DNA of 64,000 nucleotides from Lentisphaerota bacterium (GCA_015061525.1 SUWK01000003.1:18395-82394); one strand, 5' to 3'. Shown: positions 3,499 through 32,413, counted from the stretch's first letter. The notes: generated by a model from the sequence alone, not told the origin. Program-made: numbers and translations.

Positions 3499-3947
3499 TA
3501 CGCTACCACCTTTCCGCTGAACTCATCAATGGCACGGCTGCACTGGGTTCTGGTGAGAGCTTCCAGCACCGCCACGCCGAAGCGGGCTTTGATCTGTTCA
3601 GGAGTTATGCCGCAGTTGCGTGCCAAGTCCAGCAGGAACTTGATCTGCTTCGGGCTTGCCGGAGCATCGTTGTTACTGTTGCCCTTGCGGCTGTGGTTAT
3701 AATTGCCCGTATTGCCGCCTTGCGGGGCCGTTGGCGTGGTGGTAACGGTCACCGCAGGTGTCGCACCGTGCAGCTCCGCTTCAACGCTATTACGCACCAA
3801 TGCGAAGGTTTCGTGGATCTTACCGTTGAGCTGTTCGGAGTTGAGCCCGTCAGGGAGTTCCACTTCAATCGAAGCATGGTAACTCTGACTGGTGTATTCG
3901 CCCTCGGCAGGGACTTTCTTGGAATAACTTGCATTGAGTTTCAACAT
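3498..3947 (-). CDS. hypothetical protein (mobile-element module)
   Basis: 149-aa ORF with an AAGGAGAA RBS. Its stop overlaps the start of the nuclease gene by 1 nt. Confidence 0.6.
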   Translation of the reverse strand: MLKLNASYSKKVPAEGEYTSQSYHASIEVELPDGLNSEQLNGKIHETFALVRNSVEAELHGATPAVTVTTTPTAPQGGNTGNYNHSRKGNSNNDAPASPKQIKFLLDLARNCGITPEQIKARFGVAVLEALTRTQCSRAIDEFSGKVVA

Positions 3948-3965
3948 AATCTTTTCTCCTTAAAA

Positions 3966-3990
3966 TGAAAAAGCCCCGGACTGCCGGGGC
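3966..3990 (-). terminator. intra-operon hairpin / attenuator-like terminator
   Basis: Minus strand: AGCCCCGG cagt CCGGGGCT followed by TTTTTC. It sits between the clamp gene stop (4011) and the next start (3947). Confidence 0.6.
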
Positions 3991-4010
3991 TTCGTGGGGG
4001 TGGTGTCGGT

Positions 4011-9391: not shown

Positions 9392-9761
9392 CATTTTTCC
9401 GGTGAATATAGAACAATACCGCCGATGGAACATCGCTGTCGGCGGTAGTGTCGTTTTTTCATTGTTGATGATTTCGGCTTTGGTGTATTTACTGCAATTA
9501 CCGTGTCCGGAGTTATTGAAAAATAATACCCCATGCATATTATGCGGCTGTACCCGTGATTTCATTTTGATTCTTTCGCGAAAAACAGCTGAACATAATC
9601 CATTGAGTGAATTTCTGTTTACTGCGCTTGCCGTGGAAATATTTTTCCGTATCGCGGCATTGTCCATGGCACGGGCAAGCCGTGTGAGATTATTCGTGAT
9701 ACTTGAAGTTGTTTTTCACCTTATCATGGTGACCATATTTATCGTCAATATTGCCGGGTAA
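9351..9761 (+). CDS. DUF2752-like membrane protein (start uncertain: 9330, 9351 or GTG at 9402)
   Basis: A TM segment followed by LPCPELLKNNTPCILCGCTRDF matches the CP...CPxCGxTR pattern of DUF2752. No clear RBS precedes any of the three candidate starts. Confidence 0.5.
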   Translation: MKWKKHFQNWKNFDIFPVNIEQYRRWNIAVGGSVVFSLLMISALVYLLQLPCPELLKNNTPCILCGCTRDFILILSRKTAEHNPLSEFLFTALAVEIFFRIAALSMARASRVRLFVILEVVFHLIMVTIFIVNIAG

Positions 9762-9913
9762 TTCATTTTCTTTCCGTGTATAACCGGGGAGATTATCAAG
9801 ACAAATCAATAAATTACCGTCAGGGGTTATCTTATTATACTTGATTTTTTCATCTAACCGTTTATGTTGAATTACAGCGCAGAGGCGGTTAAAAATGAGG
9901 AGAATATGAGAAT

Positions 9914-10480
9914 ATGAGAAGTTTGACGACACTGCATTTGCAGTATGCACACCGGTTTTACAACTTCAAAGGTGAGGCGCAGTACCTGCACGGTCATACC
10001 GGAACGTTGACCATTGAAGTGGAAGATTCCATCAACACGGGAGTCAATATGATTTTTCCCTGCAATGAGATCAAAAAGACTGCATGGCATGTCCTGCAGA
10101 ATTTCGATCATGCTCTGATTTTGCGCAAAGATGATCCGCTGCTGCCGGCGATCCTGCAGGTTTATGAAAAACAGAATATCCGCAACGGTACTCCCACCAA
10201 TACCATGACCGGTCCGGCATTTCATACCGGGTTGGCGACAGCTTATCCGGATTGCCGTCTGGTCGTTACCAAAGAGACTATGACCGCGGAAGGTATGATA
10301 AAAATAGTTTATGATCTGTTGAAAGATAAACTCAATATTGTCAAGCTGACTTTTGTCAGCGGCGATAACACTGCATCATGCTGTTTTCCCGTTAACGGCA
10401 GTATGGAACGCTGTCCCTGTTGTGGAATCGCTCTTGACAGCAATGGAGTATGTCCTAAATGCGGTTGTAAAAAAGCTTGA
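9914..10480 (+). CDS. 6-pyruvoyl-tetrahydropterin/6-carboxytetrahydropterin synthase family (QueD-like) with a C-terminal zinc ribbon
   Basis: AHRFYNFKGEAQYLHGHTGTLTIEVE matches the PTPS/QueD active-site region. The C-terminal CPCCGIALDSNGVCPKCGC is a CxxC...CxxC knuckle. RBS is GAGGAGAA. Confidence 0.7.
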   Translation: MRSLTTLHLQYAHRFYNFKGEAQYLHGHTGTLTIEVEDSINTGVNMIFPCNEIKKTAWHVLQNFDHALILRKDDPLLPAILQVYEKQNIRNGTPTNTMTGPAFHTGLATAYPDCRLVVTKETMTAEGMIKIVYDLLKDKLNIVKLTFVSGDNTASCCFPVNGSMERCPCCGIALDSNGVCPKCGCKKA

Positions 10481-17792: not shown

Positions 17793-20342
17793 ATGGATAA
17801 TATACAGCGCAGCGGACTTGATTGTCTCAAAGAATTATTGAAGCAGATGCATCTCAACCCGGATTGGGATGGTATCGTTACTCCGGAAATACTGGCCTTG
17901 TACGACCGGGATTCAGTGAATGCTCTGCTTAAAGTCGGCGATGCCATGGAGTATCAGCCCAGCCGGGTTCAGCTTTCAGAGTTGAAAAATTATTCCGGTC
18001 CGGCACTGGCACTGCTCAAAAACAATCACTATGTGGTCGTGGTCAATACTGCGCAGCTCGCCGGAGATAAGGTGGGACTTTTCAACCCCAGAGGTAATAA
18101 CGGTCCTGCCACGGTGATGCTCAATAAAGAGCAGTTCCTGCAGATCGCCGAAGGGACGCTGATCACCTTTTCCAACTTGCGCGACTTCGATTCCCGCCGC
18201 CACTCGTCAGTTTATGCGGTCGTTTCAGTTGCCAATCATCACCGGCTCAATCTGAATTGCCGCCGGATAATGCACGACTATGCCGTTTCCAGCGATGAAT
18301 TGACTCCGCGCCAGATCATCCGTATCGGCAACGATAACTCCCTCAAGATCGCCCGGGTGAAAATGCCGTGGAAAGTTTTCAGCGGCATGGGTAAGGCGTT
18401 CCCCGCCATCGCCGTCCGTAAAGACGGCAAACATGTCATTATCTGCGGCTACCGGGATACTCCGGAAGGCGGTCAACTGGCAGTGATCGACCCGAATTCT
18501 CCGCCTCCGCCTCCCGGGGAACGTTTTTTGCTGTGGGATAAGCAGACCTATTTGAATATGTGTTCCGGCGCCGGATACATGATAAAAAGAGTCTACAAAA
18601 TGTTTGACGAAGAGCGGCCATTCGGTCTGCTCTGGTTCGTTCCTGAATTTCTCAAACTCAAGGGAGTTTTCGGTCATATCGCGTTTGCGGTGCTGATGAT
18701 AAATGTAGTGGCACTGGTGATGCCGCTCTTCTTCCAGATCATTGTGGATAAAGTGCTGGTCAGCCAGAGTTACAATACTTTGAATGTTTTGATCGTGGCG
18801 ATTTGCGTGATACTGATATTCAACGGGATCATGGAGTATTTGCGCGGGTATCTGCTGCTTTTTGCCACCAATAAAATAGATATTGCCACGGCGACCAAAG
18901 TCTTTGACAAACTTATGAAATTGCCGATAGACTTTTTTGACCGGGTTCCTTCCGGAGTGCTGCTCAAACACATGCAGCAGACAGAGAAGATCCGCGGGTT
19001 CCTTTCCGGCAGTCTGTTTTTCACCATTCTGGAGATGACCAGCTTGTTCATTTTTGTACCGTTCCTTTTGATGTACAGTGTGAAACTCACCTGCGTGGTA
19101 CTGGCTTTTGCTGCGGCGATGGCGGTGGTTATCGGGGTTTTGATCAAGCCGTTCCAGCGGAGACTGCAGGATCTTTACGCTGCTGAGGGTAAACGCCAGA
19201 GTATGCTGGTGGAGTCCATTCAGGGTATGCGTACGGTGAAAAGTCTCTCTCTGGAACCGGTTCAGAAAGAGGCATGGGCGGATACGACCGCGTTTACTGT
19301 CAATGCGTATTTCCGGGTCGGTAAAATTTCCATCACAGCCAAGACGTTAAGTCAATATCTGGAGATGATGATGAATGTTACTGTCATCGGTTTGGGTACG
19401 ATGTCGGTATTTGACGGCACGATGTCGGTCGGCGCATTGATCGCGTTTCAGATGATCTCCGGCAGGGTCACAGGACCTCTGGTGAAACTGGTCAGTCTGG
19501 TTCACGAATATCAGCAGATATCCATATCCATACAGATGCTCGGCAATGTGATGAACACCCGTCCGGAACATGCCGGCGGCGGCGTCCGTACTCCGTTCCG
19601 CGGTCAGATTGCCTTTGACCATGTGAATTTCCGCTATACTCCGGATGGGCCGATGATCATTCGCGATCTTTCATTCACCATTGAACCGGGGCAGGTTATC
19701 GGTATCGTCGGGCGTTCCGGTTCGGGAAAGACGACTTTGACCAAACTGCTGCAGGGATTGTATCCGGTTATGAGCGGTCTGGTGAAGATCGACGGTATTG
19801 ATATCCGTGAGATCGACAAGGTGCATTTGCGCAACAGCATCGGTGTGGTGCTGCAGGAAAATTACTTTTTCAGCGGTACGGTACGTGAGAACTTGAGTCT
19901 GACCAAGCGTCACGCAACGCTGGATGAGATCATTGCCGTAACCCGTCTTGCCGGTGCCGATGAATTTGTGCAGAATCTTCCTAAAGGTTACGATACCATG
20001 CTTGAAGAGAACGCCTCCAACCTTTCCGGCGGTCAGAAACAGCGTCTGGCGATCGCCCGTGCGCTGCTGACCAATCCGCGTATTCTGATTTTTGATGAGG
20101 CGACAAGTGCGCTTGATCCGGAAAGCGAAAATGTCATTCAGGAGAATTTGCCCCGAATCGCTTCGGGAAGAACGGTGCTGATCATTTCGCACCGGTTGTC
20201 CATTGTCAGCGGCGCAGATAAGACTATCGTATTGAATAAAGGTGAGTTGGATGATTTTGCTCCGCACCGTGAGCTTTTGAGCCGTCCCGGGATCTATAAG
20301 GACTTCTGGAGTCAGCAGATGGAAAGGAATATCAACCGATGA
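17793..20342 (+). CDS. type I secretion ABC transporter (HlyB family) with two N-terminal C39-like domains
   Basis: Walker A GRSGSGKTT, signature LSGGQKQR, Walker B ILIFDEATSALD, six-TM core. About 285 aa precede the TM domain and align twice to the HlyB C39-like domain pattern. Confidence 0.9.
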   Translation: MDNIQRSGLDCLKELLKQMHLNPDWDGIVTPEILALYDRDSVNALLKVGDAMEYQPSRVQLSELKNYSGPALALLKNNHYVVVVNTAQLAGDKVGLFNPRGNNGPATVMLNKEQFLQIAEGTLITFSNLRDFDSRRHSSVYAVVSVANHHRLNLNCRRIMHDYAVSSDELTPRQIIRIGNDNSLKIARVKMPWKVFSGMGKAFPAIAVRKDGKHVIICGYRDTPEGGQLAVIDPNSPPPPPGERFLLWDKQTYLNMCSGAGYMIKRVYKMFDEERPFGLLWFVPEFLKLKGVFGHIAFAVLMINVVALVMPLFFQIIVDKVLVSQSYNTLNVLIVAICVILIFNGIMEYLRGYLLLFATNKIDIATATKVFDKLMKLPIDFFDRVPSGVLLKHMQQTEKIRGFLSGSLFFTILEMTSLFIFVPFLLMYSVKLTCVVLAFAAAMAVVIGVLIKPFQRRLQDLYAAEGKRQSMLVESIQGMRTVKSLSLEPVQKEAWADTTAFTVNAYFRVGKISITAKTLSQYLEMMMNVTVIGLGTMSVFDGTMSVGALIAFQMISGRVTGPLVKLVSLVHEYQQISISIQMLGNVMNTRPEHAGGGVRTPFRGQIAFDHVNFRYTPDGPMIIRDLSFTIEPGQVIGIVGRSGSGKTTLTKLLQGLYPVMSGLVKIDGIDIREIDKVHLRNSIGVVLQENYFFSGTVRENLSLTKRHATLDEIIAVTRLAGADEFVQNLPKGYDTMLEENASNLSGGQKQRLAIARALLTNPRILIFDEATSALDPESENVIQENLPRIASGRTVLIISHRLSIVSGADKTIVLNKGELDDFAPHRELLSRPGIYKDFWSQQMERNINR

Positions 20343-21775
20343 GCAGAAAAGAAAAACTCAACAACGTGGCAGTGGATTTTCAGCCTGATGCTGTGGAAAT
20401 CGCCATGCGTCCGGTTCCGTTCGCTGCTAAATTGGGGGTGTGGATCGGGGTCGTGTTCTTTTTCGGTTCGCTGATAGCATCGTATTTCTGCAGAGTGGAT
20501 GTGATCGTGGACTGCAAAGGCAAATTGGTATCGGTGAATCAGAATATCGTGATGAAACCGCTTGACCGTACTGTGATCAAAAGTATAGATGTCCATGTCG
20601 GCGATGTGGTCAAAGAGGGACAGCTGCTCATGACTTTCGACCCAACGATCAATAAAGCCGAAGAGGAACGTCTCACCAGCGAGTATAAGAGCATCAAAGC
20701 GCAGTATGAGCGGTGGCATGCCGAGTATATCGGTAAAGAGTATGATCCGGGGATCCGCTGGATCTGTACGCAATGCAGTTTTGATATTTCCGGAACCGCT
20801 GCTCCGGATATCTGCCCTGCCTGCCGGAAATCGGAGGATTTCCGCATGGAATCCAGCAAAGACGAACGGCATCAGCGGGATATTTTTCTGAAACGGCAGC
20901 TTTACTATCAGGAAAAGATCCGTTATTTTGATGAGTCGATCCGCCAGATCGAAACCAATATCGCTGCCACACGCGACCAGCTTGCCAAACAGCGCGAACG
21001 GCTCGGCAACATGAAAGAACTGGTGGAAATGCAGGAAAAACTTGCCAAAAACAAAGCCGGTACCAAGGTCGAATTGCTCCAATACCGTTTGAGTTATCAG
21101 CAGCAGGAAGCGGAAATTTCCAAACTGGAAAACTCTCTTCGCGAGGGCAGTCATCAGATAGAATCCAACAAAGCGCAGAAACAAACCTTTGTCAACGAGT
21201 GGAAAAAGGATGTGGTGGAGAATCTTGTCGCTGCCGAGCAGTCACAGACCACCATCAAGAAAAGTCTGGATAAAGTTCTGCAGCTCAATCAGTATATTCT
21301 GCTGCGCGCGCCTTGTGATGCTATCGTGCATGAGATCGCCAACTTCCCGGTCGGTTCTGCTGTGCGCGAAGCGGAAGCCCTCATCACGCTGGTACCGATC
21401 AACTGTGAGATCGAAGTCGAGGCGGAGATACCCTCGCAGGATATCGGTAAAGTAAAAAGCGATTTCCCGGTGCGTATCAAACTTAACGCTTTTCCCTTTC
21501 AGAAACACGGTACATTATCCGGCAAAATCCGCACGATCAGTGAAGATACCTTTCAGAAGCAGGCAAATGAGATGGAGATGGATTCCGCCCGTACCTACTA
21601 CCGTTCACGGGTAAAACTTGATCCGGAAAGCAAATTGCGCAATGTCCACGGCAATTTCCGGTTGATCCCCGGTATGGAAGTGCAGGCGGAGATCAAAGTC
21701 GGAACCCGCAGTGTGCTTGAATATGTTGTTCACCCGCTGATCAAATCGCTGGATGAGGCGATCAGAGAACCATAA
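20339..21775 (+). CDS. HlyD-family type I secretion membrane fusion protein
   Basis: ATGA overlap with the ABC gene. N-terminal TM, long coiled coil, LRAPCDAIV lipoyl motif, and a C-terminal RSVLEYVVHPL tail typical of HlyD. Confidence 0.9.
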   Translation: MSRKEKLNNVAVDFQPDAVEIAMRPVPFAAKLGVWIGVVFFFGSLIASYFCRVDVIVDCKGKLVSVNQNIVMKPLDRTVIKSIDVHVGDVVKEGQLLMTFDPTINKAEEERLTSEYKSIKAQYERWHAEYIGKEYDPGIRWICTQCSFDISGTAAPDICPACRKSEDFRMESSKDERHQRDIFLKRQLYYQEKIRYFDESIRQIETNIAATRDQLAKQRERLGNMKELVEMQEKLAKNKAGTKVELLQYRLSYQQQEAEISKLENSLREGSHQIESNKAQKQTFVNEWKKDVVENLVAAEQSQTTIKKSLDKVLQLNQYILLRAPCDAIVHEIANFPVGSAVREAEALITLVPINCEIEVEAEIPSQDIGKVKSDFPVRIKLNAFPFQKHGTLSGKIRTISEDTFQKQANEMEMDSARTYYRSRVKLDPESKLRNVHGNFRLIPGMEVQAEIKVGTRSVLEYVVHPLIKSLDEAIREP

Positions 21776-21815: not shown

Positions 21816-23765
21816 ATGAAAATCAGTCAGCAGTTGTTAACCGCCGTGATCGGCATGGGTGTCCTCGTTCTTGCCGGATGCAAATCGTTCGATGACTATC
21901 AGGCAGAGCGTCTTGCCAAAACTGTAGCTCACTTTGAAAAAGCGAAGTACAGCAACATCCCTGAAGGCAAAGTTTTGACGCTCAATGAGTGTTTTGCTCT
22001 GGCGCGGGCAAACAATCTTGATCTGAAAGTTGCCGGTCTTGAGGAGAAAGTTTCCAAAGAAATGCGTACTTTTGAGATCCTCGGTATGCTTCCGGAACTC
22101 AATATTTCCAACAATCTTAATCATCGTGACAATACTCCGGCGTCCAGCAGCCGTCAGCTGCAGGGATACGGTCCCGGAACATACTCCTACAGCCAGAGTC
22201 AGGATCGTACGGTCAACTATCTGAATATCGATCTTGCTTTGAGCGTGGTGGACTTCGGTCTGGCGTTTTTCAACACCTGTCAGGCGAATGACCGGATGCT
22301 GCTGCGTCAGCAGTATACCCGCCGTGCGGAACAGAATCTGGTGCTGGACACTGTCCGGGTATACTTCCAGGTTGCTGCTTCCCAACGGGCGATCAGCATC
22401 ACCAAAAAACTGCTTGAAGAGTGCAAAAACCGTTATCAGCTTATCGAAAAAATGGGAGCAGCCGGTGAGATCACCCCATTCCGTGCATTTGACGAAGCAA
22501 AACGTTTTGTGGAGATGGAAAAACGCCTGACCAACTATATCCGTTCCTATGAGAACAGCTGTGTTGAACTGCGTTCTCTGCTCGGTCTTTATCCCAATGC
22601 CAAAATCAAAGTTGATGATACTCTGCTGGATAAGATTCCGGATTTCACCTTCCCCGAAATGGAACTTATGGAGCAGATCGCTCTGATGAAACGCCCGGAA
22701 CTTTTTGAGATCGACATGCAGAAGCACATCAACGTTCTTGAGTGCCGCAAGACGATCGTATCCATGTTCCCCAACGTGCGGATGTTTATTGATTTTACCA
22801 ACAGCAACAACAGTTTCCTCTATCATAACAGCTGGATTGAACTTGGCATTCGTGCTGCATATAATCTGTTGACTCTGCCGCGGCAGATCTCCCGTTATAT
22901 GGCGTTCAGCGCGCAGGTCGATGCGGAAGAGTACCGCAGTTATGCCCAGGCGATCGCAGTTATGGCGCAGGTGCGTATCGCCCACGGAAATCTGGTGGCG
23001 ACCAGAGAGCGTTTGGATATTGATCTGCGTGCCAACAATGTTTACCGCAAACACCTTGCCAAAGCTGAAGAAAGCAGTAAGATTTCCGGTGAATTGTCCC
23101 AGTTGGAGTTGGCGCACATGCGTCTTGCAACGGCGGAAACTGAGATCGAAAAGTATCTTTCCATCGGTAACTACTATGTTTCCTATTACCGGGTGCTGAA
23201 TACTCTGGGTATTGAAAATCTTCACAAGGTCACCGTGGATGAGTTGAAAGCAAAACTTGCTTCTGAACGCAGCCGCGCCGCTGAAGAGCTCGCTGCTGCC
23301 AAAGCGGAATTTGAAAACAGTAAAAAAGAAAAAGTTGCCGAAAAAGCTCCTGCGGCCCCGGTTGCCAAACCCGCTGTGAAATCTCCTGCGGCCCCGGTTG
23401 CCAAACCTGCCGTGAAAGCTCCTGCGGCCCCGGTTGCCAAACCCGCCGTGAAAGCTCCTGCGGCCCCGGCAGTCAAACCCGCCGTGAAATCTCCTGCGGC
23501 CCCGGCAGTCAAACCTGCCGTGAAATCTCCTGCGGCCCCGGCGGTCAAACCCGCTGTAAAAGCTCCTGCGGTCCCGGTTGCCAAACCCGCCGTGAAAGCT
23601 CCTGCGGCCCCGGTTGCCAAACCCGCCGTGAAAGCTCCTGCGGCCCCGGTTGTCAAACCTGCCGTGAAGGCTCCTGCGGTCAAAGTTGCAGAGAAAGCGT
23701 CTGTGAAAAACGATCCCAATGTTCCGGTGATTCCGGTCGATCCCACGGTGAAGTCTGTCAAGTGA
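21816..23765 (+). CDS. TolC-family outer membrane factor lipoprotein with a C-terminal Pro/Ala/Lys repeat tail
   Basis: RBS AAAGGAGCAG, lipobox VLAGC and two OEP-like helical repeats. The last ~130 aa are repeats. Confidence 0.85.
   Translation: MKISQQLLTAVIGMGVLVLAGCKSFDDYQAERLAKTVAHFEKAKYSNIPEGKVLTLNECFALARANNLDLKVAGLEEKVSKEMRTFEILGMLPELNISNNLNHRDNTPASSSRQLQGYGPGTYSYSQSQDRTVNYLNIDLALSVVDFGLAFFNTCQANDRMLLRQQYTRRAEQNLVLDTVRVYFQVAASQRAISITKKLLEECKNRYQLIEKMGAAGEITPFRAFDEAKRFVEMEKRLTNYIRSYENSCVELRSLLGLYPNAKIKVDDTLLDKIPDFTFPEMELMEQIALMKRPELFEIDMQKHINVLECRKTIVSMFPNVRMFIDFTNSNNSFLYHNSWIELGIRAAYNLLTLPRQISRYMAFSAQVDAEEYRSYAQAIAVMAQVRIAHGNLVATRERLDIDLRANNVYRKHLAKAEESSKISGELSQLELAHMRLATAETEIEKYLSIGNYYVSYYRVLNTLGIENLHKVTVDELKAKLASERSRAAEELAAAKAEFENSKKEKVAEKAPAAPVAKPAVKSPAAPVAKPAVKAPAAPVAKPAVKAPAAPAVKPAVKSPAAPAVKPAVKSPAAPAVKPAVKAPAVPVAKPAVKAPAAPVAKPAVKAPAAPVVKPAVKAPAVKVAEKASVKNDPNVPVIPVDPTVKSVK
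23346..23669 (+). repeat. nine tandem 36-nt (12-aa) in-frame repeats, consensus (A/S)PAAPVAKPAVK
   Basis: Read directly from the sequence. The copies differ by a few substitutions. Confidence 0.9.
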
Positions 23766-23780
23766 GGAGTTCATTGAGTT

Positions 23781-26700
23781 ATGAAAGAACTTGAAATATT
23801 CAAACTTGAGGATCGCGTGCTGTTTGAAGCAGCAGCGGCGGCAGAGATCATCGACGCCGCAGATGCATCGCAGTACGATCCCAATGCTGCGGTCAGTGAA
23901 AACGACCGTCAGGCGCAAATGGAGCGGGATGCCCTGAAAAATGCTCCTCCGGAAAATCCGGCAGATGTCGTTACGGAAATGACACAGAATGTTTCTCCGG
24001 AAGATATTGCCGGTGTGAATGCTGAAATCGATGCTCTGATCAACGGCGGAATGCCTGCTGCCAAAGAATTGGTGATCATCAACGGTTCTGTCGTTGATAA
24101 GGATGCCGTCATTGACAGTTTGCAGCCGGGACAGGATGTGTTGGTTTTGCAGAATGGTACCGGTCTGGCGGAAATCAATGAATATTTGGATCAAAGCGGT
24201 ACGGAATATTCCGCCATCCATTTGCTCACTCACGGCAATGAAGGGTACATTTCAGTCAATGGTGAACGCATTGATTCGGGAAATTTTGATGCTGAAGCGT
24301 GGCAGGAGATCGGTGAACATCTTACTGAAAATGGTGATATCCTGCTCTACTCATGCAATACTGCTTCCGGTGTCGCCGGCAAAGCTCTGGTCAATATGAT
24401 TTCCGATGCCAGCGGCGCGGATGTGGCAGCGAGCTGTGATATTAGTGGAATATCAGGCAACTGGGTTCTGGAATATAATTCCGGGATCGTTGAAACCGGA
24501 GAAGTCGGAGTTGACGGATTCACCCACAATCTGACCAGTTATACCGTCGATACAGCAGAAGATACTGTCGATGATACCGATGGTGTCACCAGTTTGCGCG
24601 AAGCGATCGAAGCTGCCAATGCCAATGACGGTCAGGATGAGATCATCTTTGATTCCGCACTGAACGGGCAGATCATCAAACTGGATAATGGCGTGCTGGA
24701 TATTGAAGAGTCGCTTACGATCATCGGCAATGGTACGGTCAATACCATCATCGACGGTCAGGGCAGTGATTCAATATTCAGTGTCAGTACTTTTGATGAC
24801 ATTCAGCTTGAGATCGCCGGGGTGACTTTGCAGAATGGTTCTGCCGGCGGTAACGGCGGCGCGATAGATATTACCGCCATCGGTGATGTTTCATTGAGTC
24901 TGGAAAATGTTACCATTACCGGCAGTGAAGCTCTCTACGGCAATGGCGGAGCGGTCAGTATTTATGCGCACGGTGCGGTGGAGCTGGATATAGTTAACTC
25001 CACTGTTACCGGCAACTACGCGCTGGATGATGGCGGAGCGGTTTATCTGCAGGCAGATTCTTTCACCGTTAATGTGGTCAACTCCACTGTTACCGGCAAC
25101 AGCAGTAATTCGCTCAATACCCATACCGGTGCCGGACTTTATTTGCAGCACAGTGAAAATTCCACGCTGAACATTCTCAACAGTATCGTCTACGGCAATA
25201 CCAATACCGCTTCCGGCAGTGCTGCTGATATTTATGTTGACAATCAGGCGGATACCGAAGTGGCACTGAATGTGATCCATTCAATTTACGGTGAGATCAC
25301 CGATGGTGCCGACGGGGAAACATTTGAACCTGCTGTCACGACCGGTTCAACGCAGCTGGATTACTCAAGTGACAATACCCTGCGGGTATTCGGAACAAAT
25401 TCTCCGCGTTTACAAAATGGTGTCATTCAGGTGAACAATCAGGATATTGCCGGGTACTCCGGTACATTGACAGCCAGAGACAATGGCGGGGAGTACCTTT
25501 TCTTCGATCACTCCGGCAGTTGGAAAGATCTTGGGGGCAACTCCGTTTCCGCACCCTATGCCACGGATATCATCATTGACGATCAGACCGGCAGTCACCG
25601 GGCATCCGCAAAAGAAATTCTGGGTGTGAATGAGTTTTTTGTCGGAGCTGTTTCCGGAAAGGTTTATCTTGACGTGGCTCCGCAAAGTGCATCGTACAAA
25701 TATGACGGTGAGGTAAAGACCGCAGAGGTGGTGTACACCACAGCCAAAGGTACGGTGATCACTCCGGCTGCAGTCGCTGCTTTCAATACGGTGATCTCCA
25801 CCGCCGGAATAACCACATCTTCAAAAGATGTCGGGGTCTACAAATTTGATTCCGTTACCACGGCGATCACTCATAACGGCAGCGATGTCACCGGTAAATT
25901 TGATTTGGATATCGATCAGAACGCATCCATCGAAATCACCAAACGTGCCGTTTCTCTGATTTCAGATGGTGATTACAAGGTCTACGACGGTACGGCATTG
26001 ACCAACAGTACCGTTACTGTCGGCGGTGATGGGTTCGCGGCCGGTGAGGGTGCGGTATTTACCGTTACGGGTACACAGACCAATGCCGGAACCAGTTTGA
26101 ATACCTTTACTTATACGCTGAATGCCGGAACACTTGCCGGAAACTATGATATTTCCACGTATTTCGGTACGTTGGAAGTCGGTAAACGTTCAGTTACTGT
26201 AACTGCAGAGCCCATGCAGCACATGACTTACGGTGATGCGGTTCCGGTATTTACCTATACTGCGTTGAATGTGGTGACGGGGGAAACGCTTGCCGGTGAA
26301 CTGCAGCTGATCTCTCCGGAATTCAGTTCCTCCGGTAATCTGGCGGCAGGAACGTATGTCATCGGGCAGGGAACGTTGACCAATGCCAACAATGCCAACT
26401 ACGACATTGAGTACCGGGGGGCGAATTTCCAGGTCAATACCCTTGATCTTGAGGTGAGCTTCACGGTTGCCGATAAAATTTATGACGGCAATGATACCGC
26501 CACTCTTACCGGCGCTGTTGCCGGTAACATGGTTTCCGGAGATGATCTGAGTGTTGATGTGAGCGGCGCGGATGCTCATTTTGCCGACAAAAATGCGGGG
26601 AACGGCAAAGTCGTCACCGTGTATGACGGATTGTCTTTGCTTGGAGCTGATGCCGGGAACTACAATCTGGTTTACAACTACACCGGAACCGGCAATATCA

Positions 26701-28313
26701 GCCGCCTTGATCTTGAGGTGAGCTTCACGGTTGCCGATAAAATTTATGACGGCAATGATACCGCCACTCTTACCGGTGCCGTTGCCGGTAACATGGTTTC
26801 CGGAGATGATCTGAGTGTGGATGTGAGCGGCGCGGATGCTCATTTTGCCGACAAAAATGCGGGGAACGGCAAAGTCGTCACCGTGTATGACGGATTGTCA
26901 TTGCTTGGAGCTGATGCCGGGAACTACAATCTGGTTTACAACTACACCGGAACCGGCAATATCAGCCGCCTTGATCTTGAGGTGAGCTTCACGGTTGCCG
27001 ATAAAATTTATGACGGCAATGATACCGCCACTCTTACCGGTGCCGTTGCCGGTAACATGGTTTCCGGAGATGATCTGAGTGTGGATGTGAATGGCGCGGA
27101 TGCTCATTTTGCCGATAAAAATGCGGGGAACGGCAAAGTCGTCACCGTGTATGACGGATTGTCATTGCTTGGAGCTGATGCCGGGAACTACAATCTGGTT
27201 TACAACTACACCGGAACCGGCAATATCACTCCGAAAATTCTTGATGTGACTGTCGATCTTCCGACGGATAAGATCTACGACGGAACCGTTGATGTCGATG
27301 CAAATATCACGGTGAACGGTATCGTCGCCGGTGATGATGTTCAAATCAACGCCCAGTGGCAGTATAATTCACCTGATGTTGAGGATGCTGACACCATTAA
27401 TAATACCCGTTGGGATATTACCGGGGAGGATATGGGCAACTACCAGCTGCCTGATGTGCCGTATAACGGAACAGACGCTCAAATCTCTGCTGCGGATGTA
27501 CTTATCACATATGTGACCGATTCTCCGTACTATTATGACGGCAGCGACCAGAGTGGTACTGTAAGCGCGTATTATACTGATATTCACGGCAACAGAGTCG
27601 ATGTTCCTGTGAACTGGAACGGTCAGGTCTTTGCCGCTGTCGGCAAGTACGATATTACGGTCACGTTGAGCGACAGCAATTATCAGGCGACTAATGATTC
27701 CGCCGTATTGTATATGCTGCCGAACAATCCGGCAGGCGGTATTTATTCAGACGGATTGAATCCGGAGTTTACCGGGATCGTTCCGGCGATTCAGGGCGGC
27801 TTGCTCATCAATGGTACGTCACCGGTTTACGGTGATATCTATACGATGAGTTATCCGGAATTGGTTGTTCATTCAATGCTGCATCCGGGCAGGGGCATGA
27901 TGGATGGCATGGCGGGAACAGAGAGTTTTCAATTAACTTTTGCTTCCGGCGCGGTTCAATCGGATGTGCTGAAATATCTGCCGATGACCATTGATGATCC
28001 GGTGCGTGAAAGCTCGGTTGCTGACTTCGGCTGGGTTATAAATCCGGCGGCGTTGAGTTCCGGAGATGAGCTGTCAGACAGCAGCAGTGATGCTCTTATC
28101 CAAGTGCGCGGAGATGCACCTTTGACCGTACCGGAATCGCTTTACATCGACGGTGATGCCGGAGCTGAGAGGCTGCCGTGGTATGAAGATCCGGCGCAGG
28201 AACAGGCGTTGAACGCGGTCTCTGAGTTGCCGCTGCCTGAAGATCTGCCGGTCAAAAGTGAAGCGTTCCGCAGTGAATTTGAAAAACTTCTGGAGGAGCT
28301 GGTTCAGGCATGA
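23781..28313 (+). CDS. large T1SS-type adhesin: N-terminal LEDRVLF motif, DUF4347, Pmp-like beta-helix repeats, multiple YDG domains
   Basis: 1510 aa with no Sec signal. MKELEIFKLEDRVLFEAAAAAE is followed by IHLLTHGNEGYISV...LLYSCNTASG (DUF4347-like). GGAI/GGAV repeats follow, then repeated KIYDG(N/T) units and an acidic amphipathic C-terminus. Confidence 0.9.
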   Translation: MKELEIFKLEDRVLFEAAAAAEIIDAADASQYDPNAAVSENDRQAQMERDALKNAPPENPADVVTEMTQNVSPEDIAGVNAEIDALINGGMPAAKELVIINGSVVDKDAVIDSLQPGQDVLVLQNGTGLAEINEYLDQSGTEYSAIHLLTHGNEGYISVNGERIDSGNFDAEAWQEIGEHLTENGDILLYSCNTASGVAGKALVNMISDASGADVAASCDISGISGNWVLEYNSGIVETGEVGVDGFTHNLTSYTVDTAEDTVDDTDGVTSLREAIEAANANDGQDEIIFDSALNGQIIKLDNGVLDIEESLTIIGNGTVNTIIDGQGSDSIFSVSTFDDIQLEIAGVTLQNGSAGGNGGAIDITAIGDVSLSLENVTITGSEALYGNGGAVSIYAHGAVELDIVNSTVTGNYALDDGGAVYLQADSFTVNVVNSTVTGNSSNSLNTHTGAGLYLQHSENSTLNILNSIVYGNTNTASGSAADIYVDNQADTEVALNVIHSIYGEITDGADGETFEPAVTTGSTQLDYSSDNTLRVFGTNSPRLQNGVIQVNNQDIAGYSGTLTARDNGGEYLFFDHSGSWKDLGGNSVSAPYATDIIIDDQTGSHRASAKEILGVNEFFVGAVSGKVYLDVAPQSASYKYDGEVKTAEVVYTTAKGTVITPAAVAAFNTVISTAGITTSSKDVGVYKFDSVTTAITHNGSDVTGKFDLDIDQNASIEITKRAVSLISDGDYKVYDGTALTNSTVTVGGDGFAAGEGAVFTVTGTQTNAGTSLNTFTYTLNAGTLAGNYDISTYFGTLEVGKRSVTVTAEPMQHMTYGDAVPVFTYTALNVVTGETLAGELQLISPEFSSSGNLAAGTYVIGQGTLTNANNANYDIEYRGANFQVNTLDLEVSFTVADKIYDGNDTATLTGAVAGNMVSGDDLSVDVSGADAHFADKNAGNGKVVTVYDGLSLLGADAGNYNLVYNYTGTGNISRLDLEVSFTVADKIYDGNDTATLTGAVAGNMVSGDDLSVDVSGADAHFADKNAGNGKVVTVYDGLSLLGADAGNYNLVYNYTGTGNISRLDLEVSFTVADKIYDGNDTATLTGAVAGNMVSGDDLSVDVNGADAHFADKNAGNGKVVTVYDGLSLLGADAGNYNLVYNYTGTGNITPKILDVTVDLPTDKIYDGTVDVDANITVNGIVAGDDVQINAQWQYNSPDVEDADTINNTRWDITGEDMGNYQLPDVPYNGTDAQISAADVLITYVTDSPYYYDGSDQSGTVSAYYTDIHGNRVDVPVNWNGQVFAAVGKYDITVTLSDSNYQATNDSAVLYMLPNNPAGGIYSDGLNPEFTGIVPAIQGGLLINGTSPVYGDIYTMSYPELVVHSMLHPGRGMMDGMAGTESFQLTFASGAVQSDVLKYLPMTIDDPVRESSVADFGWVINPAALSSGDELSDSSSDALIQVRGDAPLTVPESLYIDGDAGAERLPWYEDPAQEQALNAVSELPLPEDLPVKSEAFRSEFEKLLEELVQA
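26442..27233 (+). repeat. three near-identical tandem 264-nt (88-aa) in-frame repeats
   Basis: Copies start at 26442, 26706 and 26970. Only a handful of substitutions separate them, mostly synonymous; one gives S to N. Confidence 0.95.
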
Positions 28314-29017
28314 AGCTGGGGGCATTGCTCGGATTATTGTTGACGGTTCTGCCGCTTGTTGCGGAAGTTCCGGTGCGGACGGTGTTGTTTCCGTTCCGTG
28401 AAACGGTGATCTCTTCGCAGGTCGATTCCCGGCTTGAACCTTACGCTTTTTTGATCGGTCAGCAGTTTAAGAAGGGAACAGTGCTGGTCAAGCTGGATTC
28501 CGGGCGGTTTGCTCTGGAGTACAAACGTGCGCAGGACACGTACGAATTCAGCAAAGCATCTTTTGAGAATAAAAAGAAGCTGCGCGAACGGAATTTTACC
28601 AGTGATTACGAGTTGAAAAAAGCCGAATTTGAGAAAAATATGGCATTGAATGCTCTCAATGAAGCCAAACTCCATCTGGATCACTGCACTGTGACTGCGC
28701 CGTTTGATGGAAAAATTCAGGAGATAATGACCCGGGAGTATGAAACGGTACGGCCCGGGCAGCCTTTGTGCAGGATCATTGATGACAGTGTTCTGCTGGC
28801 GGTGATGAATGTGCCGATGGATGATCGTAAACTGACACGCCCCGGCGGCACGCTCCGGATCCGGTTGAGTAATTCAAATGTGATCAAAGGAGTTATTTAT
28901 GAGGTTTCTCCGCAAGCCGATCCCCGGACAGGTACAGTGCGTATAAGAGTGAAAATAAACAATGCCGAAGGGATATTGACCGCTGGAGCAACAGGGGAAC
29001 TGTGCGATGGCGATTGA
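28310..29017 (+). CDS. periplasmic membrane-fusion (HlyD/RND adaptor)-like protein
   Basis: ATGA overlap with the adhesin stop. Signal peptide MKLGALLGLLLTVLPLVA, coiled-coil segment and the VTAPFDGKIQEI lipoyl-type motif. Confidence 0.75.
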   Translation: MKLGALLGLLLTVLPLVAEVPVRTVLFPFRETVISSQVDSRLEPYAFLIGQQFKKGTVLVKLDSGRFALEYKRAQDTYEFSKASFENKKKLRERNFTSDYELKKAEFEKNMALNALNEAKLHLDHCTVTAPFDGKIQEIMTREYETVRPGQPLCRIIDDSVLLAVMNVPMDDRKLTRPGGTLRIRLSNSNVIKGVIYEVSPQADPRTGTVRIRVKINNAEGILTAGATGELCDGD

Positions 29018-30341
29018 AGATGCTGCTGCCAAACTGCGGGCATTTGCCCGGATATTGAAACTGGGGCATGATCTTTTCAATGCCGCAGATTTTGCCGATG
29101 CTGCGGTGCGGGCGGTCAACGACTCCAAAGTGGTGATAAATTACCGCAGTGCCGCATTGTTTGAGTATGACGGTAAAGATTTTGAACTTCTTGCCCAATC
29201 CGGTATTCCTGAAAAAAATCCCCGGTCGAAACTGGTTCTTGACCAGATAGAGATGTTGAAAACGCTGGATGTATCACTGCCGTTATCTGTCATTGATCGC
29301 GGGTTGCCGGGGGAGGCGGAAAAGGAGCGGACGGTTTATCTGGCGGCGAATTTACCGTGTCCGGAGGTGCTTGATGGAACGGTGGTCAGGTTTATCTGGC
29401 TGCTGGAATTTTCCGGTGAGGTTTCCGGGAATGTGGAAAATCTGGTGAAAGTGGTTGCCGGAAGTGTCGGAGAAGCGTTGTATTTTCACCGGTTTTGCGG
29501 CAGGGGAAAACGTTTGCGTAAACGGGGAACCGGCAGGAAGATTTTCTGGCTGACGGTGTTGCTGATTTTTATTGCTTCAATGTTCATCCGGGTTCCGGAG
29601 AGTGCCACGGCAGAGTTTACGCTGCGTCCGCAGGACAGTTCTGTGATCTATGCACCGTTTGATGGGACGATCCTTCACTGTCTGCGTCAGGATGGTGAAA
29701 GCGTTGCCAAAGGTGATATTATTGCCAAATATGATACGGCGGTACTGCAGTACCGTCTGGATCAGGCGCGCAGTCAGCTTGCGGAATTGGAAACCGAGAT
29801 CGCTCTTGAAGAACGCAGTGCCTTTTTCGATCCGGAAAAACTCGGCAAAGTCCGTCTGCTTGCTGCCAGACGCAAGATCATTGAAGTGACGGTCGCTGAA
29901 GCCGAATGGTTCATCGGACACTCAACTGTTACGGCTCCGGCAGACGGTGTGCTGGTACTTGCCGACGGCAGAGCAGAAAAACTTGCCGGCAAGGCGGTGC
30001 GTTCAGGGGAGAGGATCGCGGAAATATACGGCGGCAGCGGTGTGATTGCCGAGATACCGGTGGACGAAAAGCAGTCTTCGATCCTGCAGAATGATTTTTC
30101 AGTGTCGCTTTATTTGCATACCGCTCCGGAAAATGCGATCCCGGTGACAGTTGATAAGGTTGCGGCATATCCGGAATTTACAGAACAGAAAACCTGGTGT
30201 TATACAGTTCGCTGCGCGTTGCCGGATAATTCTGAAACTTTGCGTTACGGAATGCGCGGGGTAGCCAAATTATCCGGCGGCAAGGTGTTTCTGGGATACC
30301 GGCTGATAAAGAGTGCCATCCTCTATTTCCGGGGGCTGTGA
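29007..30341 (+). CDS. GAF-like N-terminal domain, one TM, HlyD-like periplasmic domain
   Basis: Overlaps the upstream gene by 11 nt. About 170 soluble residues precede the TM IFWLTVLLIFIASMF. IYAPFDGTI and VTAPADGVL motifs flank a coiled coil. Confidence 0.7.
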   Translation: MAIEDAAAKLRAFARILKLGHDLFNAADFADAAVRAVNDSKVVINYRSAALFEYDGKDFELLAQSGIPEKNPRSKLVLDQIEMLKTLDVSLPLSVIDRGLPGEAEKERTVYLAANLPCPEVLDGTVVRFIWLLEFSGEVSGNVENLVKVVAGSVGEALYFHRFCGRGKRLRKRGTGRKIFWLTVLLIFIASMFIRVPESATAEFTLRPQDSSVIYAPFDGTILHCLRQDGESVAKGDIIAKYDTAVLQYRLDQARSQLAELETEIALEERSAFFDPEKLGKVRLLAARRKIIEVTVAEAEWFIGHSTVTAPADGVLVLADGRAEKLAGKAVRSGERIAEIYGGSGVIAEIPVDEKQSSILQNDFSVSLYLHTAPENAIPVTVDKVAAYPEFTEQKTWCYTVRCALPDNSETLRYGMRGVAKLSGGKVFLGYRLIKSAILYFRGL

Positions 30342-32413
30342 TGGAAACAAAACCGGTAAAAGTCGGGGTGCTGCGCAAAGATATCGCCGTTATCCGCCGG
30401 GATCAACTGATGTTTTTTGATCCGCAGGCGGATGCTTATTTCCGGGTGTCGGAAAAAGCTGCGGAGATCGCCGCATATTTGAATGAACCTGTTGAATTGG
30501 ACGAATTTTGTGTAAAACTTTCCCGTGCCGGTATTGATGTTTCGCGTGAGGAAGTTTCCGCGCTGCTGCTTTTCCTGCAGCAGAATAATCTGCTGGAGCC
30601 GGAGTATTCGCAGATGTCTTTCAAATGCCGTCAGCTTGAAGATGCCAGAAAAAAGAGCCGTTACATACGCTGGGGGGCGGCATATATGTATTTCCGTCTG
30701 CCGCCGTGGCATCCGGAAAAGTTTTTTAAGAAGATCGCCCCGGCAGTGTCGTTTCTTGCCTCCTCATGGTTCATACTGCTGCTTGCGATCCCTGCATTAT
30801 GGGGGTTCGTGCTGGTTGCAAAGGAGTTTTACCATGTGCGGTCGGTTTTTTCCGATACGTTGTCATGGGCAGGAGCAGCGAAATATTTTGCTGCAATAGT
30901 ACTGCTGAAAGTCATCCATGAGGCGGCACATTCTCTGGCGGCGATCCGTTTCGGCTGCCGGGTGCGTGGTATCGGTATCGGATTTATGATCTTTTATCCG
31001 AGATTGTATACCGATACGACTGACAGTTGGCTGTTGCCCCGGAAAGAACGTCTGCTGATCGATGCCGCCGGGATCATTGCTGAAGTGCTGGCCGGCGGAA
31101 TCGCGGCATTGTGTTACTTTTATCTGCCGCCCGGAGCGTGGAAGTCTACGATGTTTTATATTTTTGCCGTCAGTACTATTTCCACGCTGCTGGTAAACGG
31201 CAACCCTTGTATCCGTTACGACGGATATTATATTTTGTGTGATTTGACCGGTATGGATAATCTGATGACCCGATCCGGAGAGTATATGAAAGCGTGCTGG
31301 CGGTATTGGCTGCTTAAACTGGGTAAAAAACCGCAGGAAAAGGCAGGATGGTTTCTCTTTTTATTTGGAACGGCATCTTTTGTGTACCGGATATTTCTGT
31401 ACACAGCGATCATACTGGTGATCTATCATAAATTTATCAAAGTTCTTGCTGCAGTGCTGTTGTTATTTGAGGTGCTGACGGTTTTTATTCTGCCGTGTGT
31501 CAGAGAGATACGCACGATATGGATGCTCTCGAAAAAGTCTGCTGTTAAAGCGCGGCTGATACTTTTTCCCGTGGTGGGAGCGGTTATATGCGGATTTCTT
31601 TTTCTGCCGTTGAAATGGGATATGGAGCTGCCGGGTATTGTTGTCCCTGAAAAACAGCTGCAGATCCCGCTTGCCGAGGGCGGATATCTTGAAAATGACA
31701 TGCCGCAGTTCCCGGTGAGGGTTTCTGCCGGTGATACATTGGCTGTGCTGAAATCAGATTCCCTTGATCTTGCCGGGAAAAAGCTGGCTGCGTTGCTGGC
31801 GGTCGACCGTTGCCAATACGCATTGGAAAGTGTGGATGAAAAAGATTTTGCCCGCAGTCAGGTGACACTGGAAAAGATCTCATCCGATGAAAAATCACTT
31901 GCGGAACTGGAAAGACGTATTGCCAATTTGACTGTAACCGCTCCGGAAAGCGGCGTATTCAAGGCGGAAAAAGCATCGGAATTGCGCAAAGGAAAGTATC
32001 TGCCCCGGGGAATGGTAATAGGTGAAATATATTCCGGGAAAATGGTGATTTACGCATACGGCGGTGACCGGGATATCGCCAAACTGAAGAAGGGTGACCG
32101 GGCGCGGGTATATGCCGCAGATGACATTGCCGGGTATCCGGCGGCTGTTTCGGCGGTCGATCAGGTGGCAGTGCCGCTGAAAGATTCTCCATTGCTGCAG
32201 ATTTACGGCGGAACAGTTCCCATGTACCAGAACGGAAACGGTTCCGGGGGGTTTCATTCGGTGCAGTTGTATTGCCGGGTCGAACTGGCATTTGAAAGTG
32301 CGCAACCACCTTTTGCTGTCGGACGCCGGGTACGCTGTGAGATCGCCCATACGGAACGGCTGTGGAATATTTTGGCGCGCAGTGTGATCTCAGTATTTCG
32401 CCGTGAGTTGTAA
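30341..32413 (+). CDS. fusion protein: PqqD/RRE-like N-terminal domain, M50-type membrane metalloprotease core, HlyD-like C-terminal domain
   Basis: The ATG at 30341 overlaps the upstream TGA by 1 nt (a GTG at 30338 is also possible). HEAAH lies at 30917-30931 inside a polytopic region. A PqqD-like FRVSEKAAEIAAYLNEPVELDEF segment is present. The C-terminal part has VTAPESGVF and a beta-barrel-like region. Confidence 0.75.
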   Translation: METKPVKVGVLRKDIAVIRRDQLMFFDPQADAYFRVSEKAAEIAAYLNEPVELDEFCVKLSRAGIDVSREEVSALLLFLQQNNLLEPEYSQMSFKCRQLEDARKKSRYIRWGAAYMYFRLPPWHPEKFFKKIAPAVSFLASSWFILLLAIPALWGFVLVAKEFYHVRSVFSDTLSWAGAAKYFAAIVLLKVIHEAAHSLAAIRFGCRVRGIGIGFMIFYPRLYTDTTDSWLLPRKERLLIDAAGIIAEVLAGGIAALCYFYLPPGAWKSTMFYIFAVSTISTLLVNGNPCIRYDGYYILCDLTGMDNLMTRSGEYMKACWRYWLLKLGKKPQEKAGWFLFLFGTASFVYRIFLYTAIILVIYHKFIKVLAAVLLLFEVLTVFILPCVREIRTIWMLSKKSAVKARLILFPVVGAVICGFLFLPLKWDMELPGIVVPEKQLQIPLAEGGYLENDMPQFPVRVSAGDTLAVLKSDSLDLAGKKLAALLAVDRCQYALESVDEKDFARSQVTLEKISSDEKSLAELERRIANLTVTAPESGVFKAEKASELRKGKYLPRGMVIGEIYSGKMVIYAYGGDRDIAKLKKGDRARVYAADDIAGYPAAVSAVDQVAVPLKDSPLLQIYGGTVPMYQNGNGSGGFHSVQLYCRVELAFESAQPPFAVGRRVRCEIAHTERLWNILARSVISVFRREL

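Follow-up and report, generated by a model that had tools for sequence, protein, structure and literature searches.

In a 64,000 nt stretch of a Lentisphaerota metagenome-assembled genome (GCA_015061525.1 SUWK01000003.1:18395-82394), referred to here as the window, three overlapping genes that we designate g1, g2 and g3 follow directly on the gene of a giant adhesin. The three adaptor folds that these genes encode are genetically locked together with a TolC-like outer-membrane factor (OEP), and the synteny of this four-gene cassette with giant proteins carrying an N-terminal LEPR-XLL-type box and a DUF4347 domain is strong. A functional tie between the cassette and these LEPR/DUF4347 giant proteins is probable. 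In g3, an intact and conserved M50 protease site lies between a small cytoplasmic domain and a periplasmic adaptor, all within one fused protein. The reading that we favour, which we hold with close to even confidence, is that OEP, g1, g2 and g3 make up an envelope-spanning, TolC-linked apparatus for the docking, cleavage and export of the giant proteins.

Two sets of loci were compared. A genome scan found 209 relatives, from which 80 loci, nearly all of them from Lentisphaerota, were kept; a metagenome scan with a diverse alignment as query provided 80 loci, which were analysed with home-built hidden Markov models (HMMs), the component HMMs being made from few sequences. Counts out of 61 and 30 refer to Lentisphaerota and diverse metagenomic loci, respectively, of at least 12 kb, and counts out of 35 to diverse metagenomic loci with at least 4 kb of flank on one side. 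Flanks were limited to 10 kb, so that the N-termini of giant genes and anything further out are often hidden, and the calling of open reading frames (ORFs) in GC-rich loci may include artefacts. The order g1-g2-g3 is conserved in essentially all 80 loci of the Lentisphaerota set, with g1 present in 59/61. Among the 30 diverse loci, 29 carry g2, 27 carry g1, 20 an OEP gene and 16 a DUF4347 gene; an ABC transporter, an HlyD of the type I secretion system (T1SS) or a SecA-like gene was found in none of these 30. Where a usable flank was available, an OEP gene was present in 23/35 diverse loci and a giant or DUF4347 neighbour in 29/35 (15 with DUF4347 and 14 with an ORF of at least 900 aa, the latter mostly running off the edge of the locus). 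The linkage to an adhesin, which the original prediction had allowed might be incidental, is not so. Lentisphaerota loci have an adjacent OEP gene in 26/67 cases, and a TolC-like gene and a giant co-directional ORF are both far more recurrent there than HlyB/HlyD. The position of the substrate gene varies: it may be upstream, divergent, downstream or between g1 and g2 (L131, L136, L155). Across the 160 loci, no neighbour family recurs besides OEP and the giant proteins.

Thousands of protein clusters represent the cassette, and they stem from Lentisphaerota, Proteobacteria and a large number of environmental lineages. An exhaustive HMMER search with the g3 architecture returned 10,718 clusters at E <= 1e-3 and 2,411 clusters (50 % identity) at E <= 1e-30, the members being mostly about 700 aa long and aligned end to end; their public names are limited to ‘HlyD family efflux transporter periplasmic adaptor subunit’ and ‘putative peptide zinc metalloprotease protein’. 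A Magnetococcales locus encodes a DUF4347-caspase protein, OEP, and g1-like, g2-like and g3-like proteins, and on a 3-Mb contig the four-gene cassette is accompanied by a divergent DUF4347-cadherin giant gene. At least three paralogous cassettes (L013, L017, L049) occur in the cultured type strain Victivallis vadensis DSM 14823; in L017, a 203-aa protein with LEPR box and DUF4347, encoded between TolC and g1, is the substrate. Roseateles violae combines a 14,271-aa giant protein with OEP, a GAF-adaptor protein, a g3-like protein, a SecA-like ATPase and a g1-like protein. Such a truncated SecA paralogue of ~664 aa, consisting of the DEAD motor and the preprotein-binding domain (TIGR00963 545 bits, cutoff 800), lies inside the cassette at L081 13979-15973 and L082 14018-16009, and in L083 and L089. 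In this SecA-like subfamily (Roseateles violae and metagenomes), g2 carries real GAF domains. With the SecA-like proteins as tblastn query, nothing was found in the window or in loci L001-L080. Three Lentisphaerota clusters downstream of the cassette (c8, c22, c44) were considered as SecA-like and rejected by eye, being glutamine-synthetase-like, a zinc-ribbon repeat protein and a kinase.

ORF calling on the window reproduced every one of the three coupled ORFs, overlaps and motifs that the original prediction had described (Table 1). The adhesin stop and the g1 start share the sequence ATGA (28310-28313), g1 and g2 overlap by 11 nt (29007-29017), and the g2 stop and g3 start are merged in TGATG (30339-30343). 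g3 can be read as 691 aa from a GTG at 30338 or as 690 aa from an ATG at 30341, in both cases to 32413, and the ATG is also the start of the identical database protein P0001. A promoter and terminator scan of the window gave the same counts as in shuffled sequence.

Table 1. Positions of the cassette, its presumed substrate and the upstream genes in the window
Feature	Position	Strand	Evidence
g1, small secreted periplasmic adaptor (membrane fusion protein), 235 aa	28310..29017	+	TIGR01730, HlyD_D23, hydrophobic N-terminus
g2, predicted cytoplasmic GAF-like domain (aa 1-165), transmembrane segment (aa 176-194) and alpha-hairpin periplasmic adaptor, 444 aa	29007..30341	+	AlphaFold2 model, Foldseek
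g3, predicted cytoplasmic RRE/PqqD-like domain, polytopic M50 core and periplasmic adaptor, 690 aa	30341..32413	+	Profiles, AlphaFold2 model
HEAAH zinc-binding/catalytic motif of g3	30917..30931	+	Translation, alignments A1 and A3
NGNPCIRYDG, second M50 signature of g3 (NxxPxxxxDG, third zinc ligand Asp)	31196..31225	+	Translation, alignments
Giant adhesin, presumed substrate, 1510 aa	23781..28313	+	DUF4347, YDG x4, MBG_2
N-terminal LEPR-XLL-type box KLEDRVLFEAAAAAE, proposed recognition leader	23802..23846	+	Box pattern, position
DUF4347 domain (PF14252) of the adhesin	24069..24497	+	Residues 97-239, conserved H-G and S/G-C
Acidic amphipathic motif AFRSEFEKLLEELVQA at the extreme C-terminus of the adhesin	28263..28310	+	Loose pattern
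TolC-like outer-membrane factor (OEP), fourth cassette member	21816..23765	+	Pfam OEP 64.6 bits
HlyB-type ABC exporter, clade-specific partner, candidate energiser	17793..20342	+	TIGR01846 598 bits
T1SS-type HlyD adaptor, clade-specific partner	20339..21775	+	TIGR01843 294.9 bits (cutoff 208.65)

The assignment of g3 to the M50 metalloproteases, already made in the original prediction, is well founded, as the protein scores over the Peptidase_M50 cutoff (PF02163, 32.6 bits against 27.2) and both active-site motifs are intact. The same profile is matched by 27/27 diverse members of the g3 family. HEAAH occupies aa 193-197 within a predicted helix (177-204), and its His, Glu and His are invariant in alignments of 18 close (A1) and 27 diverse (A3) sequences. 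The second signature, NGNPCIRYDG at aa 286-295, had been overlooked earlier; its N, P, D and G are invariant or nearly so in both alignments. The core contains at least five strong hydrophobic segments, and the positive-inside distribution together with the number of helices points to an N-in, C-out topology, with the N-terminal domain in the cytoplasm and the adaptor in the periplasm. The C-terminal adaptor domain, with VTAPESGVF at aa 532, matches MacA, MexA, ZneB and EmrA in Foldseek with probability 1.0, the adaptor fold dominating this whole-chain search and rendering it uninformative for the other two parts. The nearest curated relatives of the core are maturation proteases of peptides that are made by the ribosome and modified after translation (RiPPs): g3 scores 151 bits against NF041824 daptide_HExxH and 40.7 bits against NF058609 YydH/LiaK, reaching neither cutoff (300 and 225), and these profiles are matched by 27/27 and 22/27 family members, respectively. 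Weak matches to RseP and MJ0392 fall on the HExxH helix. Beyond generic adaptors and site-2 proteases, the Protein Data Bank (PDB) holds nothing that matches g2 or g3.

The small N-terminal domain of g3 is plausibly a RiPP recognition element (RRE) of the PqqD-like type, as its predicted structure suggests. The AlphaFold2 model of g3 (predicted local distance difference test, pLDDT, 79) shows a β1-3/α1-3 module at aa 17-82, with strands at 17-20, 24-28 and 33-37 and helices at 39-45, 54-63 and 70-82 (pLDDT about 70-85). Searched alone against Pfam at E <= 10, the domain gave no PqqD match. PqqD is recognized by sequence in one family member of 27, the Roseateles orthologue (Pfam E 6.9e-5; TIGR03859 22.5 bits against a cutoff of 46), in which the match runs end to end though it is sub-threshold. 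What stands of the PqqD-like claim is thus the predicted β3-α3 fold and the Roseateles orthologue; a Pfam match in the window protein itself is lacking.

The two partner proteins are adaptors. In the profile search, g1 scores 135.9 bits against TIGR01730 (cutoff 94.9) and 67 bits against HlyD_D23; it has a single N-terminal hydrophobic segment (aa 4-22) with no lipobox Cys, and VTAPFDGKI at aa 128. g2 scores 46 bits against HlyD_3 (cutoff 22.2), contains a single transmembrane (TM) segment and carries IYAPFDGTI at aa 214 and VTAPADGVL at aa 308. Its AlphaFold2 model (pLDDT 85.5) consists of an N-terminal α/β domain, the TM segment and an adaptor with a two-helix hairpin, and its best Foldseek match is MacA with probability 1.0, the adaptor domain also matching MexA, ZneB and EmrA, again in a whole-chain search dominated by the adaptor fold. 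The HlyD-like character ascribed to all three proteins is therefore borne out, by profile scores for g1 and g2 and by adaptor folds for g2 and g3.

A GAF-like identity is plausible for the N-terminal domain of g2, which is predicted with a GAF-compatible topology (pLDDT ~88). Distant g2 orthologues have real Pfam GAF domains at the equivalent position, and hhalign places the g2 domain in register with this region, with an E of 0.002 but weakly (probability 14 %). The domain alone had no GAF match in Pfam at E <= 10, and against PDB profiles it yielded noise only, so that the GAF-like claim of the original prediction draws on the fold and the orthologues and not on the window protein’s own profile matches. 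One Magnetococcales locus (L085 13206-16063) contains, ~1 kb downstream of the cassette and past one ORF, genes for a CHASE2-guanylate/adenylate cyclase and an Apyc1-like cyclic-nucleotide phosphodiesterase with a metallo-beta-lactamase fold; this single case suggests a cyclic-nucleotide input to the GAF-like domain.

The presumed substrate in the window has no Sec signal, TM segment or RTX repeats, and the same holds for cassette-adjacent LEPR/DUF4347 proteins generally; RTX-like motifs were also not found in the close Lentisphaerota orthologues of the adhesin. A regular-expression search for the N-terminal box (L-E-[P/D/Q/S]-R-x-x-[F/L]-D/E-[A/G]-A) recovered it in 38/43 cassette-adjacent DUF4347 proteins, and three of the five exceptions start at a locus edge. 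The box corresponds to NCBIfam NF012209 LEPR-XLL, whose cutoff is reached in 4/5 non-Lentisphaerota examples; equivalent boxes in cassette-adjacent proteins of other phyla score 17.5-24.5 bits (cutoff 17). Between box and DUF4347 runs an acidic linker of 24-270 aa (median 53) that is nearly free of K and R. The DUF4347 domain of the adhesin scores 106.4 bits (cutoff 24.6), and its alignment (A6) has invariant H, G, C and D columns, with H-G at aa 151-152 and S/G-C at aa 191-192. The C-terminal motif, approximately F-K-x-D-x-E-x-L-L-x-E-x-x-x-x-COOH, occurs in 21/991 ORFs of 80 loci, all directly upstream of the triad, and once in the window. It is common to several unrelated giant-protein clusters (L001-L054, L041/L042/L072) and may be a lineage-specific secretion signal; other phyla have looser amphipathic F/Y...LL..L tails.

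The presence of the cassette seems to follow the LEPR extension and not DUF4347 as such, in a contrast that is confounded with phylum. In a cassette-independent sample of DUF4347 proteins on contigs of at least about 5 kb, 18/21 begin with the domain and are box-less. None of five box-less loci (Leptolyngbya, Planktothrix, Prosthecochloris and two metagenomic) has a cassette within 10 kb, and in four of them RTX repeats occur in or beside the DUF4347 gene.

These observations suggest a model whose functional steps we infer from synteny, motifs and predicted structures. The adaptor modules of g1, g2 and the g3 C-terminus would assemble a periplasmic duct on TolC. RiPP recognition elements capture leader peptides, and the cytoplasmic RRE-like domain of g3 would correspondingly bind the N-terminal LEPR box of the substrate. 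The M50 core would cut the Ala-rich stretch just behind the box, after LEDRVLFEAAAAA, and in this way processing would be tied to the transit of the substrate through the duct or to its release, as in peptidase-containing exporters. Regulatory input may come from the GAF-like cytoplasmic domain of g2. The motor would be modular, with HlyB/HlyD, ATP-driven and sharing TolC, serving in the window, and the SecA-like ATPase in the Roseateles-type subfamily. For EpeP, an M50 RiPP protease, a double role in cleaving and exporting its peptide has been proposed (PMC10885120), a precedent that supports coupled cleavage and export by g3. Recognition of the box by the RRE-like domain with cleavage by the M50 core is a tentative part of this proposal, one that we consider possible at somewhat under even confidence, and we are equally guarded about whether the cassette is the export conduit itself and not merely a gate or switch.

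Several points weigh against this model. No energy source is encoded in most cassettes, and we know of no M50 protease that acts as a translocator. The complete T1SS that is co-operonic with the cassette in the window could be the sole exporter, and the acidic C-terminal tail of the adhesin resembles a T1SS-type signal. The binding of the box by the RRE-like domain and the cleavage of the adhesin are steps that we infer; PqqD is visible by sequence in just the one family member, the GAF-like domain of the window g2 escapes both Pfam and PDB profiles, and the window variant of the box, LEDRVLFEAA, is too divergent to obtain an NF012209 score. The synteny has exceptions, since 6/35 diverse loci and 28/67 Lentisphaerota loci lack a giant or DUF4347 neighbour within the flank, and some of the ORFs of at least 900 aa in GC-rich loci are possibly spurious. 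As for the five box-less loci, cyanobacteria or Chlorobi account for at least three and the remaining two lie on metagenomic contigs without assignment, and two box-positive samples taken in the reverse direction were uninformative, their contigs being short or disrupted by insertion sequences.

The original prediction described the triad as welded onto a T1SS-adhesin operon. This description fits the window and its closest relatives only: HlyB is adjacent in 6/61 Lentisphaerota loci and T1SS-type HlyD in 7/61, all of them the closest relatives of the window, and both counts are 0/30 in the diverse loci. Locus L010 has the arrangement TolC-adhesin-g1-g2-g3, with a TolC orthologue of 78 % identity, unrelated genes upstream and no HlyB/HlyD. 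It follows that the window TolC is orthologous to the cassette OEP and that HlyB/HlyD were added in this clade; the partners conserved across phyla are OEP and the LEPR-box/DUF4347 module.

The strongest rival, which we consider rather unlikely but still live, is the one that the original prediction had raised by analogy to LapD/LapG: a retention and release switch in which the adhesin is exported C-terminus first by a T1SS (in the window HlyB/HlyD/TolC, in other genomes one encoded at another site), the RRE-like domain of g3 tethers the LEPR box while the acidic linker threads the duct, and GAF-gated M50 cleavage frees the adhesin. Such a switch would account for the co-operonic T1SS and the conserved acidic tail, for an N-terminal tag that is the last part out under C-first export, and for a box-to-DUF4347 linker that is acidic and nearly devoid of K and R. 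The sensor-type cytoplasmic domain of g2, with real GAF domains in orthologues, and the cyclase and phosphodiesterase-like genes near the Magnetococcales cassette also speak for it, as does a published giant protein of Vibrio that has LEPR-XLL at its N-terminus and RTX domains at its C-terminus (PMC10868602). However, outside the clade of the window the T1SS partners are missing from all 30 loci, the cassette-adjacent substrates have no RTX repeats, an OEP of its own and three adaptor modules are excessive for a mere switch, the SecA-like motor within some cassettes favours translocation, and the linker, with a median of ~53 aa, is too short even when extended to cross the whole envelope. Pfam and NCBIfam scans found no BTLCP or GGDEF/EAL domain in g1-g3 and their neighbours.

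M50 proteases have a classical role in signalling, and adaptor proteins are classical partners of efflux pumps. It is accordingly conceivable, though improbable, that g3 is a site-2-type protease of a membrane regulator, as its weak RseP and MJ0392 matches might indicate, or that the cassette is an accessory of small-molecule efflux, the adhesin being mechanistically unrelated in either case. Against this, g3 has no PDZ domain and carries the RRE-like domain in its place, neither an anti-sigma/sigma pair nor an RND, MFS or ABC pump recurs beside the cassette, and the arrangement of the genes is closely tied to the giant protein, with substrate genes even inside the cassette. The export of a small RiPP or bacteriocin-type peptide by a leader peptidase, also entertained in the original prediction and making the giant-gene adjacency incidental or secondary, is very unlikely: the RRE-like domain is typical of RiPP enzymes and the closest curated relatives of g3 are RiPP proteases, but their cutoffs are far from reached, the genes overlap, the 116-nt spacer 3′ of g3 holds junk ORFs only, and neither modifying enzymes nor conserved small ORFs that could encode a precursor recur in the 160 loci.

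The cassette belongs among the TolC/adaptor envelope machines, of which the accepted tripartite forms are built on ABC, RND or MFS proteins. As the original prediction had noted, the triad encodes none of these pumps. It resembles T1SSs (HlyB-HlyD-TolC; LapBCE) in its TolC-family factor and adaptors and in a giant, repeat-rich, Sec-less cargo with acidic C-terminal tails. It nevertheless falls outside the definition of a T1SS, having no ABC exporter of its own; its sole polytopic inner-membrane part is the M50 metalloprotease-adaptor fusion, it has three different adaptor modules where a T1SS has one, and its substrates are N-terminally tagged and free of RTX. In peptidase-containing ABC transporters (ComA, PCAT1), which in Gram-negatives work with an adaptor and TolC, a leader-recognizing protease is likewise fused to an exporter and N-terminal cleavage is coupled to transport, as proposed here for the cassette; the protease there is a C39 cysteine peptidase with an ABC motor, whereas the cassette has RRE-like and M50 parts and no motor, and the cargo there consists of small peptides, compared with proteins that range from 1,000 to over 14,000 aa.

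The RiPP M50 proteases (EpeP/YydH-LiaK, daptide HExxH, TglG/TmoG) are the closest sequence relatives of the N-terminal domain and core of g3, and share the HExxH/NxxPxxxxDG site and, as proposed for g3, the logic of cytoplasmic peptide recognition. Unlike them, g3 has a C-terminal periplasmic adaptor, two partner adaptors and an OEP, and is not accompanied by precursor or tailoring genes. LapA-LapG-LapD offers a functional parallel: there, too, a giant adhesin has a specialized N-terminal module and a protease of its own, and a protein of the inner membrane joins a cytoplasmic sensor to a periplasmic output. The parts are unrelated, since LapG, of the BTLCP type, acts as a cysteine protease in the periplasm and LapD is a GGDEF/EAL receptor for cyclic di-GMP; in comparison with LapG, the g3 protease is intramembrane and zinc-dependent, and its proposed recognition domain is cytoplasmic. 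TriABC-OpmH, with its two different adaptors, and MacAB-TolC establish heteromeric adaptor rings as a possibility, and the g2 and g3 adaptors find their best structural match in MacA, but in these systems the adaptors enclose an RND or ABC pump, the cargo being small molecules, and the cassette encodes no such pump.

The triad appears to be uncharacterized, as the original prediction had supposed: no description was found in the searchable full-text literature, a scope that excludes subscription-only papers, and no structure in the PDB. The cassette is not mentioned in the Chlorochromatium giant-protein preprint or in the 2021 Chem Rev review of tripartite systems. The giant LEPR-XLL/DUF4347 proteins rank with the longest that bacteria make, and to our knowledge no mechanism has been described for their export, anchoring or release. 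Should the favoured model be correct, the catalogue of tripartite machines would be extended by one in which a fusion of leader recognition and protease stands in the pump’s place, the LEPR-XLL and DUF4347 ‘unknown’ signatures would gain a function, and the display of adhesins would gain a testable handle. RiPP-type recognition and cleavage logic may have been recruited for proteins with lengths from 1,000 to over 14,000 residues. A bolder version, which we regard as speculative and on balance unlikely, would make OEP and g1-g3 an unrecognized but widespread Gram-negative secretion class, in which an RRE-guided M50 protease-adaptor replaces the T1SS ABC transporter, the LEPR-XLL leader of giant proteins is recognized and cleaved, the cargo leaves by a duct of hetero-adaptors and TolC, and motors are interchangeable (SecA-like paralogue, HlyB or housekeeping SecA). 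Victivallis vadensis DSM 14823 would be a practical experimental system.

Further observations were made on the cassette and its surroundings. In eight distant Lentisphaerota loci (L055, L059, L064, L066, L067, L069, L070, L075), a protein of about 85-90 aa (c14) that ends in ...FLNAFNSMQ-LIDKLL-AG is encoded between the OEP gene and g1. The window does not encode it, and in L175, an unrelated metagenomic locus, weak homologues (3833-4135, 9633-10001) are found immediately upstream of DUF4347 genes. It may be a chaperone or accessory factor. Within the DUF4347 domain of the adhesin (24213-24371, aa 145-197), invariant H-G and G/S-C pairs stand behind beta-strands, with invariant Asp residues in addition. 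This motif resembles the His-Cys dyad of clan CD (caspase/CPD-like) and the domain might, judging by these residues, be a candidate autoprotease. An independent DUF4347 protein, P0445, is co-annotated as Peptidase_C80, and chain G of PDB 9QPE, named ‘DUF4347 domain-containing protein’, is a weak match only. Behind the domain, CSLREA_Nterm (TIGR04214) was detected at 24540-24620 (aa 254-280) with 23.2 bits, missing the cutoff of 25.

The best PDB match of the window HlyB is E. coli HlyB (7SGR), with the alignment starting at residue 139, from which point the window protein contains a C39-like domain (CLD) without the catalytic Cys. Residues 1-137 (17793-18205) form an extra C39-like module, in which Q5, C11 and H79 are spaced as in an active C39 peptidase and Asn (NHYVVVV) replaces Asp in the ‘NP’ position; the protein may thus have a tandem C39-like/CLD arrangement. 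Residues 143-162 of the T1SS-type HlyD (20765-20824) make up a CxxC...CxxC rubredoxin-like zinc ribbon (RUBY_RBDX 23.8 bits, sub-threshold), an insert in the expected periplasmic part that is unusual for an adaptor. Lastly, the adhesin gene contains three tandem 264-nt units at 26441-27228, each encoding an 88-aa YDG-domain repeat, and their near-identity (98 %) indicates a recent repeat expansion.

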